Source: an uncultured delta proteobacterium
Lineage (GTDB): Bacteria; Desulfobacterota; Binatia; UBA9968
Direction: 5' to 3'
DNA: 64,000 nt
NCBI GenBank assembly: GCA_963755715.1
Contig: CAVWLW010000052.1
Span: 64,001-128,000 of the forward strand
Under the pieces are notes generated by a model, which did not search any database, was not told the origin of the DNA, and saw only the letters and a program-made list of their open reading frames with translations. The translations under genes and the position numbers were made by a program. Each line of letters opens with the position of its first letter. Positions within the stretch are counted from its first letter, which is position 1. Positions 56,436-62,680 of the stretch are shown in pieces.

Positions 56436-57719
56436 CTATCGAAGCGCGGCGAGCTTGTTTCTCCAGTGCGTCTGCCAATCCGTGCCGTTCGTGATCACTT
56501 CGGATACTACTGTCAGATGCGGAAAGCGATTCTTTTCCGCGCGGCGAATCACGTGGGGCGCTTCGCGACCGGCTTCAACGTCGCGAATGGCGCGTAAGAC
56601 TTGACGGCGCGCGGCGATGATCGCCCTGTCGCTAGGGCCGAGGAACTCCAACGTGCGGTCGACGATCGGGCCGCTGCCTTCGACGATAGCGGTGTCTTGC
56701 ACGTTGAAGATCCGTCCCATTCCGGAAAAACTCCACGTCTTCATCGACTCGCGATCTTGCAGGTAGCGATTTCCCTTGTTGCGCAACGGCCGATAGCCGG
56801 GCGTCAGTTCGTCGAGGATTTCCTGGTTTCTTTGAATGTCTTTTTCTTCCATCGGCGCGCTGCGGCGAAAGACGATGTCGTAGCGCCAGTGGCTGCGTGT
56901 CGTCGATCGGCACATGCCAGTAAAGATTGTAACCGTCGCCGGACATGGGGCCGGGGATCGTCGCCTTGTTGGGCAGAATGAAGTTTGTCACGCGAAAAAA
57001 AGTGCGACCCTTGTCGGTATCTCTCGTTGAAAAGATCCGCACGCCATAGTCCGTCTCTTCAATATCGATCTCGGGCGCCACGTCGGCTTCATAGAGTGCG
57101 AGCGGCAGTTTGCCATCGCTGCCTTCGACGGGTCGTTTCAAATTCTCTGGCACATTGGCTTGGCGGTGCAGATAAGACACGTGACTGGGGTCGAGGTTGC
57201 CTTCGTTCGCCTGAAAGTAATTGCACTCGTGAAAAATCTTGGTTACGAGCACGTGGCCCGGACGGCGCGAGAAAGGGCTCATAGGCGGGAAAGAGCGGCA
57301 GCTTCGCCGGGGCCCATATAGGCAAAAATAATCCCGGCCTGCTCATGACACGGATACGCTGGATGATGGACTTTTTCGCAGAATCTCTTTGTGAGGGTTC
57401 GCACGGTTGCTCTAGGCAGTTGCCGTGCCGGTCGTAAAGCCAGCCGTGATAAAGACAACGCAGACCACCATTCTCAACGCGGCCATAACTCAAGTCGGCG
57501 CGCCGGTGCGAACAGTGCAGACCGAGTAATCCGAGCTGTCCTTGATCGTCGCGGAACAGCACGAGATCCTCACTCATGATGCGCACCGGCAAAGGCGCGC
57601 CATTCGCGGGCACTTCTTCCGCCAGAGGCTACCGGCTGCCAATAGCGACGCAACAAAGCGCCGCCTGGAGTGCCGGGGCCGGTGCGGGTTAGCAGGTCGT
57701 TTTCTTCTTGTGATAACAC
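56436..57719 (-). CDS. Rieske non-heme iron oxygenase alpha subunit (phthalate 4,5-dioxygenase/LigX-like), several frameshifts
   Basis: SQEENDLLTRTGPGTP..RRYW, CSHR...CLYHGW Rieske motif, EGNLDPSHVSYLH iron site, QD, E.LG.SD. Confidence 0.86.
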
Positions 57720-58827: not shown

Positions 58828-59021
58828 AGATCTCGGAAGGCGGGGTCGCGGCTGTATTTGCTGATAGAAAAAGCCGCTGTCTGAAGATTGGTTCGTGACG
58901 TTAAGCCTACACGGTACGAACCAAACCGGACTCCTGAATTTTTCCTCGCGGGTAATCCTGTGCCAAAGCGTAGGTTCCAATCTGCAAAACGAACGGGTTT
59001 GATAGAACTGCGGCGTGAAAC

Positions 59022-59066
59022 GGCTTGAACGATTTGAACGTTTGGAACGGCCAAATCGTTCAAGCG
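59022..59066. repeat. Short GTTCAA/TTGAAC tandem repeats (also 56293-56342)
   Basis: TTGAACG-ATTTGAACG-TTTGGAACG ... CGTTCAAG. Confidence 0.55.
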
Positions 59067-59783
59067 CTTCTTATTGGCATGAGAGGCCGGAAGCTACTTA
59101 ACCGGATCCGGCACTCCGGGCGGTTTGGTCTTAGCATCGTAGAATTCCTGCGAAAATTCAGGTCAGCCAGTGAATCGGCATGGCCTCCCGACTGTCCTCT
59201 TGAATGAATGAACTTCGCTGATTCAGCCTTCGCCGATTCCGTTCATGCATCATATCTATGTCGTGATACATCATGTCTATGTCGGCGAGAGTTCCGCGAA
59301 GCCCGTGTCACCGCAGATTCAGCACTTCTATGTGGCTGCGCCGGCGCGCGCAGGTTAATCTAAGGCATTCCCGCCCCCGAATCTTACCGCACGCATGACG
59401 AAGGCCGCGCCAGGTGTGCAATCTCACGTGCAAGGATCACCCGATAAACCAACATGCCGTGGTCAGCCCAGCGAAAGACTGTAACTCAGTCGCGCACCTA
59501 GCGAACCCGATAATTCCAGCCGGAAGATGTGCTTCAGCAAACTACCTAAGTTGTACTTGTTATCCCTGCCGACCGTTGCACGGAATGCTCTGCGGATCGC
59601 AATAATTTCTCACGTAACTTTGTAGTACCCTGAGGCATGCGAGACTTACCGTAGAGTTTTCACTACCCTGGGGTAGAGCCAAAACTACCCTTCAGGTGTA
59701 TCGCCGTCTCATTTAGGAACTTACCATTCGAAATTCTTCCGTTCACTCCACATTTTACTCTCGTCGAATCTCAGCACTGAGGG

Positions 59784-59798
59784 TGGCACGACGGTTGC
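59784..59798 (+). promoter_or_regulatory. Sigma54 (-24/-12) promoter
   Basis: TGGCACG-ACGG-TTGC matches the TGGCAC-N5-TTGC consensus, about 180 bp upstream of the Tat protein gene. Confidence 0.7.
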
Positions 59799-59980
59799 GC
59801 TACGAAAGTCCGCGTCGGAGGTGCCAGCGTTCATCGCTTTGATGCTGTTCTATGCGTTCGGCTCCCAAAAAGCAGATTGAGAGAAGGTGATGCCTATGTT
59901 TTGAAGAGATTCATCCTTTCACCCTATCGGATATGTGCAAAGTCTCTACGCAGGCTCGTAAGCCTGTTAAAGGAGGACAC

Positions 59981-60882
59981 ATGAGATTGGAGAGCTTGAC
60001 ACCAGATCGCATCAAGACGAGGCACACGTTGGTCGCGCGTCATCTCGCGTGGCATACACCGATCTCTCGCAGGACGTTTCTCAGGGCTGGAATCGGCACG
60101 TCCGCGATGGGCGCGGCACTCGGCGCGGGCTCTTACGGCCCGTAGCCGCCTCGGCCGCTCCCGGGATCGGCAATGTGCTGCCAATCCCCAGCACGCTGGA
60201 GCCTTTCCCTGGTGTAGAGATTCACGTGCAAGCACCGCCCTTCACTGGGCCCAATACCGATCCGTCGACCGTCTGGAACTTCCAGGGCGCTTCAGGCATC
60301 GCCTTCATGGACACTTCGGCAACGCGTAGGCATAGGAAGACCGGCGAGGAGGAGGTCCTGCCCTCGACAATGAACCACATGACGTTGATGCAGGGCATCT
60401 ACGTCGGGCGAGATGGTCACGTGCGGGAGGGTACCTTCTCCTTCGTTTGAATTGACATCTACGCCCCTGGAGGGGCGCAGCAGCTGCACGATTTCAACCC
60501 CGGGATTACCCAGAATGGCCTTTTTTGGACGGTCGTTCTCCCAGCCGACAATGTCCATGTAGACCTCAGCGCAGGGGCAGCCACGCTCGAAGTGGACTCC
60601 CTGGACATGAAGGACTATTACACCCTTGAGAACTCATTTCTGGCTAACATTGGGCAACCGACCCCTGCAGTGATGTCTTTCACCGTCGTGTGGAACGCAA
60701 CTGGTAGCGTCAACCACTACGATAACGAGGCCGAGAATTTCCGGGGCGATTGTAGGGACACCTTAGGGCGGATCGAGTACTCGGGACGCGCTGGCGATTT
60801 TGAGTTCCAGTCCGCTCCTCTTGCCAGCTCGACGACCGTCGCCGCAGAGATTGGTCGTGAGAGCAACGGCTCGTTCTACTAA
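59981..60882 (+). CDS. Tat-exported hypothetical protein with in-frame TGA (candidate selenoprotein); frameshift near 60130
   Basis: RBS AGGAGG; SRRTFL Tat motif and ASA cleavage site; ORF 60049-60450 ends in TGA and the same frame stays open to TAA at 60882. Confidence 0.7.
60451..60483 (+). promoter_or_regulatory. Candidate bacterial SECIS hairpin
   Basis: UGA + 11 nt + CGCCCC-UGGA-GGGGCG stem-loop with G in the apical loop. Confidence 0.55.
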
Positions 60883-61207
60883 GTGCTGGCCAGTCGAAGC
60901 TTCGCAGTGGGCGTTTATGCCCAAGGCAGGGCCGGATTGACGGCGTCTCGGTCCGCGAGGACGGAATCGAACGTGGAAGTAAGATCGCCGGCCGTGCCGT
61001 CAATCTGTTCCTCAAGCCGGAGAAAAAATAGCTTTTCCCACAGGGACGTAGCTCGAATTCTGTGTCGTTGGATCTGGGCTACGTTCCTACGAGAGGGTGC
61101 GGCCTGTCAGATTAGACATCCTTGCGCGTTTCATTCGTTTCACCTTCTTGTATAATGTTATTTGGGGAGAAATACACGGTTTCAAAAGCGGCCTGTCAAG
61201 CCACCTC

Positions 61208-62680
61208 AAAATCTAACCGGAGCTGGGATTCGTTGAGTCATGTGGAAATCTAACCGAAGGTTGTGTACGAATCTGTCCTTCTATTTCAAATTTCTGATGT
61301 TTGAGTTTGTTGCTGAAGGTCCAGCCTCTCCATGCTGAGCCCGACCGATGAGATACGGAGCGAGTCTTTTGGGGGTTGAGCTCAGGGTTTGGCCGCATTT
61401 CTTTTATTGGGGTTTTCTCCCGCATAGCACCATTTCGTTGAGCCGCTAAAGGGTAAGAGAGTCGAGTTGCTGATCGATACGATGTGACAGTTCAAAAGGG
61501 TCGGTATTTTGCCCCAGGGATTTTAGCCCCTGGATCTGTGGGAGAGTTTTGTTTTGGGATTTGAGTACCCGCTTTAGAGGAGTAGAGGGCGGATCGTAAT
61601 GGCGCATCACCCGTGAGCCTTGACGGACTTTGCTTCGAAGCTTCATGGAAGGCTGGAACAGATTCTGAAAGATCCGAAGCTGCTCATAGAGCTGGTTGAT
61701 CCTCTTGAGGGCTTCTAAAGTGTCGTAGCGCTCCCAGCCCAAGAGTTTACGCACGTGGGTCCAGTTTTTCTGCTCCACATGCGTATTGTCATCTTTTTTG
61801 TGGGGCGCGAGCGGGTGAACTAGATTTTAGAGGTTTTGGGTCTTTGCTGACAGAAATTAAACAGGTGGGTATTGATGAACTCGCTGCCGTTGTCGGAGTC
61901 AATGCCGCGCATTGCGAAAGGCAATCTCTGCTCAATTTCTCTAAGCGCCGCCACAATTCCGAGCTGGCCTTTGCCCATGACCGCCTGTCGTTCCACCCAG
62001 CCGGTGGTGATATCGACACAGTCCAGAGTGTAGATGAACTCCCCAGCTGCCGAGGCGCCCGAATGCGCGACCAGGTCGATTTCTAGATAGCCGGGCAAAG
62101 CCACCTCCCAATGATCAGTCTTGATAGTAATCATGTGTTTGAGAAGTGAGCCTGGGCGAGTGGTGCCATAGAGGCGTCGTTTGACGGTGCGCTTGTGGGG
62201 GAAAAGCCGCCGATCCATCACGAGCACTGATCGCCAAGAGCTCTTTTTCCAATTCTTCGTTCACCTTAAAGTGCTTCTTGATCCAGGGGAGCCACTGCGG
62301 CAGTGTCGCCTTTAGACGCTGAGAGCACAGATAGCCGGAGGCTTCCCAGACCTTGGCCAGCACCTTAATGCTTGCCTTACTGTAGGTCACCGAGCGCGGC
62401 GTCACACCTCGGCGCACAGCGCCTGGGCAAAGGACGGCTTAAAAGCCAGATGGCGTACTTGCGGTTATAACCGCACACCTTGCAGAACTCTTCCAACATC
62501 GCGCTCTTCTCTGTGCGCCGCCCCTGTCGGTAGCGCTTATGAATCGATCGCAAATACTCCCGCTTGGATTGTCGCGCCATACTGAATCCCTCCATCACTC
62601 CCCTTCTTCTCCTCCACAGCATGAGGCCAAGGAGGGTTAGATTTCCAAACGGCGCAACGAACCTTTACTCGGTTAGATTA
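61208..62680 (-). mobile_element. Insertion sequence with integrase-core (rve-type) transposase
   Basis: Imperfect ~45-bp inverted ends, each with two AATCTAACC / GGTTAGATT motifs; TGGAAATCTAACC (61243-61255) pairs with GGTTAGATTTCCA (62635-62647). Confidence 0.75.
61213..62580 (-). CDS. Transposase, integrase catalytic domain (multiple frameshifts)
   Basis: MARQSKREYL, GYNRKYAI, PGYLEIDLVAH, DSDNGSEFIN, NTHVEQKNWTHVR (DDE triad). Confidence 0.88.

Follow-up and report, generated by a model that had tools for sequence, protein, structure and literature searches.

At the locus described here, a reading frame of about 300 codons that opens with a twin-arginine (Tat) signal, is interrupted by an internal TGA and ends on a TAA at 60882 lies on the forward strand of the window (the whole stretch of 64,000 nucleotides that was analysed). 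We confirmed the features that an earlier, sequence-only reading had claimed for this locus, and their coordinates are collected in Table 1. Frame A (59981-60145) translates as ...ISRRTFLRAGIG...GAGSYGP and then meets a stop, and frame B (60049-60450) translates as ...LLRPVAASAAPGIG...FSFV up to the TGA, past which it stays open up to 60882. A base had been suspected to be missing near 60130; indeed, where the window has GGG, 4/4 aligned close relatives have GGGG or AGGG. With this base restored, the window sequence reads GAGLLRPVAASAAP. The first in-frame start codon past the TGA is GTG 60592, 48 codons on, and the 47 codons in between, which had been judged protein-like, encode some of the family's best-conserved residues.

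Table 1. Coordinates of the features at the locus and the basis of each assignment
Feature	Position	Strand	Basis or remark
Sigma-54-like -24/-12 element TGGCACGACGGTTGC	59784..59798	+	exact TGGCAC-N5-TTGC; weak lead only
Ribosome-binding site AAGGAGG	59970..59976	+	4 nt 5' of ATG 59981; kept in 4/4 aligned relatives
N-terminal region, predicted twin-arginine signal (ISRRTFLRAGIG...)	59981..60129	+	frame A translation, to the G-run
G-run, 1 base short relative to relatives	60127..60129	+	alignment with 4 relatives; frameshift in the window's copy
N-terminal half of mature protein, frame B	60130..60447	+	ends ...REGTFSFV; translation, alignment with 29 full-length relatives
In-frame TGA, predicted selenocysteine codon	60448..60450	+	column conservation in DNA copies
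C-terminal half, 143 codons, IDIYAPGG...ESNGSFY	60451..60879	+	family length and codon-position conservation
SECIS-like hairpin	60459..60480	+	core 60462-60477, bSECIS model fit
TAA terminator	60880..60882	+	read in sequence

The TGA was found at the identical column in 91/91 DNA copies, i.e. in the window, in 10 genome loci that come mostly from Acidimicrobiia MAGs and in 80 metagenome loci from soil or rhizosphere, with identities of 42-94%. In all of them the two halves are adjacent and in one frame, and the frame shift between the halves that would have spoken against a single protein was not seen. The sequence-only reading had looked to homologs with TGA or Cys at this column, and both exist: a distant homolog in the genome G349, roughly 35% identical, has TGA, and Cys stands there in two further distant homologs, P0131 and P0277. 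Among the 91 close copies a Cys form is lacking altogether, an unusual situation in selenoprotein families that counts against selenocysteine (Sec). In other distant full-length homologs the column is occupied by Ser (5), Gly (2), Leu or Phe, which means that there is no universal requirement for the residue. Tryptophan, named at the outset as an observation that would speak against Sec, does occur at the column in 8 distant and 5 closer database proteins, all of them available as protein sequences only, while TGA stands in every DNA copy that could be read. Short JGI contigs and Logan are the sources of the proteins with Trp. One of them, P0129, ends in ...NGRFF-W-RK, that is, with its terminal TGA translated as W, and another, P0006, is 95% identical to locus L094, whose DNA has TGA. 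Altogether, the Trp forms have the appearance of genes that were called with code 4.

Coding continues past the TGA, as had been anticipated. It is followed by 140-148 codons in 75/79 3'-complete loci, and divergence per codon position is alike on both sides (0.30/0.23/0.53 downstream, 0.27/0.24/0.51 upstream). In the alignment of 29 full-length relatives, residues I108, D109, D121, N123, G125, F132, W133 and T134 are invariant. Constraint is equal on the two halves, which makes the long form the selected product. The first in-frame ATG, GTG or TTG past the TGA lies anywhere from codon 3 to codon 76 across the family. The 79 complete copies terminate on TGA (46), TAA (19) or TAG (14), and in the 46 copies ending on TGA it stands directly behind the conserved ...NGSF[YF], which indicates that these organisms read TGA as a stop.

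The hairpin CGCCCC-UGGA-GGGGCG was indeed found 11 nt past the TGA. Its arms, CGCCCC (60462-60467) and GGGGCG (60472-60477), form 6 G-C pairs around the loop UGGA (60468-60471), at a UGA-to-loop distance of 17 nt, and the proposed extension by U-A and C-G pairs corresponds to U60460-A60479 and C60459-G60480, beyond an A.C mismatch. The bacterial SECIS (bSECIS) consensus model of Zhang and Gladyshev, given in the legend of Fig. 2 of PMC13188914, has a loop of 3-9 nt, an upper stem of 4-16 bp, a G in the first two loop positions, a UGA-to-loop distance of 16-37 nt and an MFE <= -7.5 kcal/mol. This model is satisfied by 71/80 distinct sequences of the family, against 2955/14926 (19.8%) control in-frame positions in the same genes, and a strict variant with a contiguous stem is satisfied by 44/80 sequences, against 6.6% of controls. 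In 9/80 distinct sequences, the model hairpin is absent from the minimum-energy fold. Like fdhF-type elements, the family hairpins start 11-14 nt past the UGA, with a UGA-to-loop distance of 17-22 nt; their upper stem of 4-9 bp, their loop of 3-6 nt with G then U/G among its first two positions, and their MFE (<= -7.5 kcal/mol in 71/80 sequences) also resemble bSECIS elements. They differ from the fdhF SECIS in that their sequence is unrelated, and many of their stems are very short, with 4-5 G-C pairs and two more beyond a mismatch.

Constraint on the nucleotides themselves is concentrated at the same place. Excess synonymous-codon identity reaches 0.327 at codons +1 to +12 after the TGA, against 0.088 elsewhere (Mann-Whitney p = 3e-5), and the top sliding windows of synonymous constraint over the whole gene begin at +1 to +5. 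At codon +8, Ser is encoded by AGT in 32/32 cases, compared with 63/1360 of the family's Ser codons, and at codon +10, Gly is encoded by GGG in 49/51 cases, compared with 467/2207 of its Gly codons. A covariance model of the hairpin (R1) matched the site alone, in 90/91 sources; the distant homolog L105 was missed. Of the covarying hairpin that had been expected, the fit to the bSECIS model stands, but formal covariation does not rise above shuffles in a fixed register: in the model-fitted alignment it scored 0.101, against a shuffled mean of 0.104, which is not significant. The 4-bp core of the hairpin is 89% paired and nearly invariant. Register-shifted sequences show compensatory stem variants (CCCTC/GAGGG, CCCGC/GCGGG and CCTCCC/GGGAGG), in which the peptide is altered and the pairing kept. 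Recoding each sequence synonymously gave a weak result (median z -1.0); Pro...Gly peptides tend to form CCN...GGN hairpins anyway. RNAalifold predicted no structure from the MAFFT alignment, as loop and stem lengths shift the hairpins out of register, and Rfam searched over 59700-61000 returned nothing meaningful, all matches being far under gathering scores (E 2.5-9.9). Judged by sequence comparison, the pattern of conserved TGA and hairpin in this family is beyond chance.

The genome of the window (G000) encodes the machinery for Sec. We detected a tRNA-Sec (76.7 bits, anticodon TCA), selA (617 bits) and selB (416 bits), and a selD that lies in two frames and itself contains an in-frame TGA, within a G-U-A-A-K motif. 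Among the other family-bearing genomes, selA was found in 9/10, 8 of them above cut-off, with no match in the MAG G063. All four genes that the sequence-only reading had expected to co-occur with the family are thus present in G000; as selA occurs in 142/201 sampled genomes of the class Acidimicrobiia, its co-occurrence with the family does not discriminate. The family itself was found in 2/301 sampled Acidimicrobiia genomes and in 0/60 relatives of G000.

Control by sigma-54, which had also been suggested, was not supported. TGGCAC-N5-TTGC occurs in exact form once in the window, upstream of the gene, the count with up to one mismatch (3, against 4.4 expected) is not above chance, and only 1/4 aligned relatives shares the element, which is present in L027 and absent from L025, L028 and L030. 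G000 has rpoN, and the scan of neighbouring genes revealed no sigma-54 activator. To our knowledge, Actinomycetota lack sigma-54, so that G000, with its rpoN, is probably not a member of that phylum. No neighbours are conserved family-wide; a dienelactone hydrolase gene and a Rieske/LigXa gene are shared as neighbours in the window's own clade only.

The N-terminus of the window's protein, ISRRTFLRAGIGTSAMGAALGAG...VAASA/AP, combines a Tat motif, a hydrophobic stretch and an AxA cleavage site, and the protein is accordingly predicted to carry a Tat export signal. The Pfam TAT_signal model matches it with an E-value of 0.0051 and 17.1 bits, under the 22.7-bit cut-off, and matches 5/24 diverse members at E <= 1. 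The motif [ST]RR.F[LMI] is present in 63/90 loci, and most loci without it are truncated at the 5' end. Apart from these signals, no known family was recognised, as the sequence-only reading had supposed. Pfam gave no family for the 24 diverse members, NCBIfam gave none for 4 members with the stop read as Sec (sub-threshold Tat-signal matches only), and in a sequence profile search of the PDB nothing but Tat signals came up, at E >= 0.19. The family is also devoid of CxxU and UxxC motifs.

We also modelled the joined protein. AlphaFold predicts a single long-stranded beta-barrel with confidence (pLDDT 91.7, pTM 0.88), to which both halves contribute strands. Foldseek against the PDB gave nothing at E <= 0.001, the best weak rows being PsbO, and judging from the model the family fold seems to have no close solved relative. 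In overall barrel architecture, it resembles the long-stranded, 8-stranded barrels OmpW/NspA/PagL, soluble PsbO, AttH NE1406 and the fungal pericyclases CghA/Fsa2. VIA-align gave a Z of 10.1 with OmpW (rmsd 3.6, 127 aligned), 10.0 with NspA, 8.9 with CghA and 7.1 with AttH; however, sequence identity of these proteins to the family is 4-8% and such Z values are common among barrels. The likeness is one of fold only and gives no sign of common descent or of a function in common. When the Cys homolog P0131 was used in a language-model feature search, DUF1838 (PF08894) clusters ranked first (score 0.94, 26/30 matches). This identity was not retained and is kept as a lead only, PF08894 not being among the Pfam matches at E <= 1 of the 24 diverse members; it had no match in G000, and the control genomes gave none either.

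A parallel in layout is offered by periplasmic formate dehydrogenases of the E. coli FdnG/FdoG type, which carry a twin-arginine signal and a UGA that is read as Sec via a SECIS right behind the codon. The present family likewise has a Tat signal, an in-frame UGA and a hairpin, and its sole weak matches in the PDB and NCBIfam are to the Tat signals of formate dehydrogenase alpha subunits. It differs from these subunits by having neither a molybdopterin or Fe-S domain nor the UHxP motif, and by its size and fold, with about 260 mature residues in a single barrel compared with the MopB fold of about 1000 residues.

In databases, the family is common and broken. It is common in soil metagenomes; the window's protein has 170 matching clusters at 90% identity, and the family profile has 1496 matching representatives (about 1500 clusters at 50% identity). 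Among the best 150 of these 1496, 40 are N-terminal parts, 94 are C-terminal parts and 16 span the column; 24 of the 40 N-terminal parts end exactly before the TGA. Most matches in protein searches are 152-164 aa long and end in ...F[SA][FL][VT]. The suspicion that annotation pipelines split the protein in two is thus borne out by 134 of the best 150 representatives, split at the TGA column. Given a conserved internal TGA with a Sec-insertion signature, databases would wrongly keep one protein as two halves. We found no description of the family in the literature; a listing in BSepDB or in paper supplements under another name is possible. The predicted hypothetical selenoprotein families GOS_B/C, DG/DW/DF and OS_HP3-5, given in Table 1 of PMC13188914, resemble it in being domain-less and recognised only through a conserved UGA plus a SECIS. 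According to PMC12013277, such hypothetical families were accepted on account of numerous Cys homologs, and discovery methods based on Cys pairs are blind to families without Cys orthologs. The present family differs from those families in this respect, with Cys confined to 2 distant homologs.

Taken together, this locus very probably belongs to an undescribed family of Tat-exported selenoproteins. Comparative support for Sec insertion at UGA 60448 in an undescribed Tat-signal protein, the central proposal of the sequence-only reading, was obtained by the comparative tests it had proposed, formal covariation aside. We suggest that the locus encodes a single protein of about 300 residues, a member of an unnamed family of Tat-signal beta-barrels, in which UGA 60448-60450 would not act as a terminator. 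The G+C-rich hairpin, whose apical loop opens with G(U/G) 17-22 nt downstream, would be a bacterial SECIS element that recruits SelB with Sec-tRNASec to the ribosome. Selenocysteine would then be inserted within a beta-strand, in the motif F-x-[FL]-[VIT]-U-I-D-[VI]-[YF], and the folded protein would be exported via the Tat pathway. We infer that the Sec is most likely redox-active or ligand-binding, sharing one face of the strand with F103, D109 and Y/F111.

Other readings of the TGA have to be weighed against this one. If the codon were a leaky or regulated stop, the main product would be an exported protein of 156 residues, and the hairpin would aid occasional near-cognate readthrough with Trp, Cys or Arg, from which the long form would result. 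The Trp found in some database homologs, the covariation that falls short of significance, the lack of a Cys form among the 91 close copies and the tolerance of distant homologs for Ser, Gly, Leu or Phe all fit such a leaky stop. We nevertheless hold it improbable: in 71/80 sequences the hairpin has the particular spacing (17-22 nt) and the G(U/G) at the head of the loop that the bSECIS model calls for, the Sec machinery is present in G000 with selA in 9/10 of the other family-bearing genomes searched, the C-terminal half is constrained like the N-terminal one, and the Trp forms stem from short contigs or Logan, with a terminal TGA read as W in P0129 and a TGA in the DNA of L094, the close match of P0006. 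Gene callers instead output exactly two products, a Tat-exported N-terminal protein and an independently initiated C-terminal one, and in some members (e.g. P0144, P0152 and P0155, starting VDV...) a GTG lies right behind the TGA. Two separate genes are nonetheless very improbable, as the position of the restart codon varies from 3 to 76 (codon 48 in the window) although the intervening residues are highly conserved, the halves adjoin in one frame in every copy, AlphaFold joins them in one confident barrel, and distant homologs in which a sense codon stands at the column consist of one polypeptide. That TGA is read as tryptophan under an alternative genetic code, to which the Trp in some predicted proteins could point, is hardly credible: this reading is already contradicted by the 46/79 family genes that end on TGA right behind their conserved C-terminus, and no internal stops interrupted the matches to selA, selB and further G000 genes.

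A further question concerns the window's copy alone. If the missing G is real, the gene is dead and the organism is losing it, perhaps together with Sec use. The frameshift stands in the assembly, selD of G000 has a 1-base indel too, integrase fragments adjoin the gene (61446-62622), its G+C is 0.593 against 0.551 for the window, and the searched relatives of G000 lack the family; if both shifts, in this gene and in selD, are real, the Sec trait could be decaying in this organism. On the other side, rpoN, the Rieske/LigXa-like oxygenase gene and an integrase of the same assembly are frame-broken as well, a pattern typical of indel-prone assemblies, the shift sits in a homopolymer, and, the missing base aside, the surroundings of the G-run and the aligned stretch are near to the 4 relatives, with the remaining frame intact. 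Among contigs of relatives, one in run X2 and two in X4 have the extra base behind 60125/60126, and those in X1 and X15 end or break at that position. None of the raw-read runs searched contained more than 0.41 of the words of the stretch, and the source sample was not found among them. Metatranscriptome contigs of a relative span the TGA (60418-60745), contigs from RNA libraries being no proof of transcription. We consider that the missing G is probably an assembly indel and not the mark of a real pseudogene, the dead gene being rather unlikely.

As far as we know, selenoproteins are rare, and nearly all bacterial ones known are cytoplasmic redox proteins that were found via Cys-containing homologs. 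Against this background, the combination seen here is unusual: a Tat signal, a barrel unlike thioredoxin, no CxxU or UxxC motif and apparently no Cys orthologs in the core clade, in a family that public databases list solely in the form of two truncated 'hypothetical proteins'. If Sec is indeed inserted, selenoproteins would gain a new family, and selenium probably a new role outside the cytoplasm; hundreds of mis-annotated genes would be corrected, and selenoprotein finders independent of Sec/Cys pairs would gain a concrete test case. One step further, soil bacteria may widely harbour Tat-exported, non-thioredoxin barrel selenoproteins, with a core clade in which Sec is obligatory and Cys orthologs do not exist, a proposal to which we give an even chance. 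Were it true, selenium would perform a chemistry that sulfur cannot replace, e.g. by ligating a metal or cofactor or by serving as the catalytic nucleophile within the barrel, and it would act outside the cytoplasm, in aerobic Actinomycetota and in at least one sigma-54-bearing phylum. A further implication would be that, since methods based on Cys pairs are blind to such families, the bacterial selenoproteome is systematically under-counted.

The sequence-only reading had proposed the in-frame TGA of this gene (59981-60882) as a candidate selenocysteine (Sec) codon, and we found that homologs keep it. A protein query made of the joined frame, with the stop as X, matched 170 clusters; among the 120 listed, nearly all have 152-164 residues and are limited to the part before the TGA, and an aligned sample ends exactly at ...F[SA][FL][VT]. 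In the DNA set, 10 loci belong to species-representative genomes (labels: Acidimicrobiia, Actinomycetes or related MAGs for nine, only 'bacterium' for one) and 80 are JGI metagenome loci, mostly from soil and rhizosphere, the best 80 of 91 confirmed. TGA stands at the aligned column in all 91 copies, the window counted (86 by motif scan, four by a looser scan and L019, a MAG locus, by hand), at identities to the window of 42% to 94%; no TGG, TGC or TGT was seen there among the DNA copies read. A distant homolog also carries it (FAFF-TGA-FDLF) and is included in the family matches, found in 2 of 301 sampled genomes from the class of the family-bearing MAGs (mostly Acidimicrobiia). The internal TGA is a real, strongly conserved recoding site. 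In the window itself, re-reading the sequence returned the same coordinates throughout; the hairpin starts 11 nt past the TGA and, beyond an A.C mismatch, adds U-A and C-G pairs.

Features of the candidate selenoprotein gene and of the split oxygenase upstream
Feature	Positions	Strand	Remark
Ribosome-binding site AAGGAGG	59970-59976	+	sequence
Start codon ATG	59981	+	sequence
First frame, MRLESLTPDRIKTRHTLVARHLAWHTPISRRTFLRAGIGTSAMGAALGAGSYGP	from ATG 59981, ends at TAG 60143-60145	+	translation
Second frame, ...LLRPVAASAAPGIGNVLPIP... to ...REGTFSFV		+	translation; one base off the first
In-frame TGA	60448-60450	+	sole interruption of second frame
Hairpin arms CGCCCC and GGGGCG, loop TGGA between	60462-60467 and 60472-60477	+	sequence
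Terminator TAA	60880-60882	+	second frame open up to here
Oxygenase, Rieske part	57089-57613	-	ORF
Oxygenase, LigXa_C parts	56632-57282, 56436-56915	-	ORFs

Past the TGA, the frame runs for 140-148 codons and ends in ...ESNGSF[YF] in 75 of the 79 3'-complete copies, the exceptions being two frameshifted MAG loci (L017, L019) and the loci L040 and L075. Mean pairwise divergence at the three codon positions is 0.30/0.23/0.53 over codons +22 to +60, counted from the TGA, vs 0.27/0.24/0.51 upstream, which indicates purifying selection on the protein in the TGA-spanning frame. A C-terminal half initiated separately, at an ATG, GTG or TTG past the TGA, is not a credible explanation, since the earliest such codon is scattered between codons 3 and 76 (in the window, codon 48), and yet residues just past the TGA do not vary among 30 aligned sequences (I108, D109, P113, Q118, D121, N123, G125, G130, F132, W133, T134). 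Moreover, 46 of the 79 genes end on TGA (TAA 19, TAG 14); TGA is therefore a normal stop here and the internal one requires a special signal.

The consensus bacterial SECIS, as described in PMC13188914, has an upper stem of 4-16 bp, an apical loop of 3-9 nt with a G among its first two positions, then usually G or U, a UGA-to-loop distance of 16-37 nt and an MFE <= -7.5 kcal/mol. We folded the 48 nt past the TGA and compared them with all the SECIS criteria of that description. The full model fits 71 of 80 distinct family sequences vs 2955 of 14926 (19.8%) in-frame control positions elsewhere in these genes, so that the SECIS-like hairpin first seen in the window extends to most of the family, with spacings of 17-22 nt and loops UGGA, (A)GUU(C), GUC and similar. 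A contiguous-stem-only version gave 44/80 vs 6.6% of controls, and in most of the nine sequences outside the full model the CCCC...GGGG hairpin is still present, as a sub-optimal fold. When every sequence was recoded at the codon usage of the family, the median z was -1.0, a weak value because the Pro...Gly-rich peptide itself favours CCN...GGN complementarity. A codon alignment of 65 sequences shows an excess identity of synonymous codons of 0.327 at +1 to +12 vs 0.088 elsewhere (Mann-Whitney p = 3e-5), and its top eight 10-column windows over the whole gene begin between -2 and +7. At +8, all 32 Ser codons are AGT, though AGT is the rarest Ser codon of the family (63/1360); at +10, 49 of 51 Gly codons are GGG (family usage 467/2207), and at +7, 60 of 62 Pro codons are CCC or CCT. 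Codon choice around the putative hairpin is thus far from neutral. The loop motif (A/G)GU(U/C) is constant despite differing peptides (SS, SL, QL, GS) and codon registers, and stems change in concert (CCCCC/GGGGG to CCCTC/GAGGG or CCCGC/GCGGG; CCTCCC/GGGAGG at a codon insertion), several of these changes also altering the encoded residue. RNAalifold found no structure on the MAFFT alignment; in an alignment fitted to a covariance model, pairing in the 4-bp core reaches 89% but the core is nearly invariant, and the covariation score equals the shuffled mean. The real evidence for the hairpin is synonymous-site constraint and fit to the SECIS model, not a formal covariation count.

The genome that the window comes from (7.4 Mb, 76 contigs, 93.6% complete) has a tRNA-Sec (76.7 bits; anticodon TCA by ARAGORN) and adjoining selA (617 bits), selB (416 bits) and selD genes (contig C3:71086-75411; loci L020-L024). 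Its selD has its own in-frame TGA (motif G-U-A-A-K), which means that the organism already reads UGA as Sec. Among ten other family-bearing genomes, selA is present in nine, eight above cut-off and one (G070) in three frame-shifted pieces, and G063 gave no match. As 142 of 201 sampled genomes of the class of the family-bearing MAGs (mostly Acidimicrobiia) have selA, its co-occurrence with the family, proposed as support, is consistent yet non-discriminating.

Could the codon instead stand for Trp? A HMMER search with the family profile against 1.84 billion representatives gave 1496 matches at E <= 0.001, of which 748 reach E <= 1e-10. The best 150 of the 1496 comprise 40 N-terminal parts (24 ending exactly before the column), 94 C-terminal parts and 16 spanning proteins; annotation pipelines do split the gene, as predicted. 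The 16 read W 7, S 4, G 2, C 1, L 1 and F 1; Cys forms are P0131 (SVCLDLF) and P0277 (CICLNLF), the second added by a follow-up search. All but one of the W forms, known as protein sequence only, lie on JGI contigs that are 1.0-2.0 kb long. P0129 overruns the family C-terminus (...NGRFF-W-RK), its terminal TGA being read as W, and P0006 is 95% identical to the locus L094, whose DNA carries TGA. W is ambiguous in principle, and these forms seem to point to gene calls under code 4. JGI calls on short contigs that are full-length with W at the TGA column include P0003-P0007, P0123, P0129 and others. The core clade has TGA only, and distant branches Cys or the non-redox Ser, Gly, Leu or Phe. This pattern fits a selenoprotein family in which Sec is important in one clade, though it is not as clear-cut as the classical Sec/Cys one.

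Another question is whether the window copy is intact. All four related loci aligned to 59760-60200 (L025, L027, L028, L030) have one extra base relative to GGG 60127-60129, and adding it joins both frames as ...GAALGAGLLRPVAASAAP.... Contigs of related organisms from the public soil runs X2 (one contig) and X4 (two contigs) also have it, and contigs from X1 and X15 break at this point; the highest share of the window's sampled words in a public run is 0.41, and the contigs compared are those of relatives. The same assembly is frame-broken in selD by a 1-base insertion (GACAAAGGTCAAAG vs the frame-keeping GACAAAGTCAAAG), in rpoN (C34:25713-27141; two adjoining pieces, covering profile positions 1-101 and 102-434, that differ in frame), in a Rieske/LigXa-type oxygenase 3 kb upstream (56436-57613, minus strand; three overlapping ORFs in three frames, two frame changes along the tblastn match) and in integrase fragments downstream. 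For this reason, we consider the missing G to be probably an assembly indel within a homopolymer. The split oxygenase points to either assembly indel errors or gene decay, and a real pseudogene in the window keeps some likelihood.

The gene has a G+C of 0.593 vs 0.551 for the window and was found in none of 60 relatives searched, which makes recent acquisition plausible. Directly 3' (61446-62622, minus strand), four short successive ORFs, one a weak integrase-core (rve) match (E 5.7e-4), look like a broken IS or integrase. On the 5' side, 58830-59980 (~1.1 kb) has no convincing ORF and contains a 20-nt inverted repeat (59023-59042/59046-59065, 90% complementary), another of 14 nt (58888-58924) and, at 59245-59335, three direct repeats of 19 nt (~450-540 nt 5' of a sigma-54-like element); these repeats could be terminators or regulator-binding sites. 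The proposed sigma-54 control remains a lead: 59784-59798 (TGGCACGACGGTTGC) matches the -24/-12 consensus exactly and the genome has rpoN, but with <= 1 mismatch allowed there is no enrichment (3 matches vs 4.4 expected), the element is kept in one of four relatives (L027) and no activator gene was seen near the gene.

As for the protein, Pfam gave no family for 24 diverse members, Tat-signal models apart; NCBIfam, whose library includes many curated selenoprotein families named in PMC13188914, gave no model for four members, and PDB sequences no match beyond Tat signals. Ahead of the twin-arginine motif, a His-rich stretch is frequent (HAGHRH, GHSH, HLAWH; loci L010-L104), which is unusual for a Tat n-region. 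The AlphaFold2 model (30-sequence alignment, Sec as Cys; pLDDT 91.7, pTM 0.88) has long antiparallel strands, both halves in a single domain, and Sec in strand 98-111, in agreement with the beta strand first predicted. Exhaustive structural comparison returned only generic 8-stranded barrels at 4-8% identity (Z: OmpW 10.1, NspA 10.0, pericyclase CghA 8.9, AttH 7.1), and Foldseek no match at E <= 0.001, its best weak rows being PsbO. With the Cys homolog as query, a language-model search suggested DUF1838, a lead that received no confirmation from sequence profiles. No neighbour gene is conserved across the family.

Table 1 of the 2026 catalogue (PMC13188914) holds no fitting entry among its 119 prokaryotic selenoprotein families, and full-text literature searches gave no description of the family, which may be listed under another name. 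In NCBI and ENA, members are stored as truncated hypotheticals (P0101: 169 aa, 'MAG: hypothetical protein ... Acidimicrobiaceae'). BSepDB is presented as compiled from families reported earlier (PMC13326102), and the deep-Sep article states that current methods need Cys-containing homologs and may miss families without them (PMC12013277). Altogether, the conserved TGA, the continued frame, the SECIS fit, the Sec genes and the lack of a matching family uphold the proposal of an undescribed selenoprotein: this is very probably a new selenoprotein family, and Sec is highly likely to be inserted at the internal UGA. As a mechanism, SelB with a bacterial SECIS follows a known pattern; new are the protein family, the export signal, the fold and the apparent lack of Cys orthologs. 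More widely, where short contigs are automatically assigned code 4, selenoprotein genes may be concealed as seeming Trp forms. In our working model, the family protein would be exported and serve either as an enzyme or in binding. From strand periodicity, F103, U107, D109 and Y/F111 would lie on one face, and the polar residues invariant in the 30-sequence alignment (H32, D44, R69, N82, R94-D95-G96-H97, R99, U107, D109, D121, N123, N168, E244, N246), Sec among them, would together make up a site.
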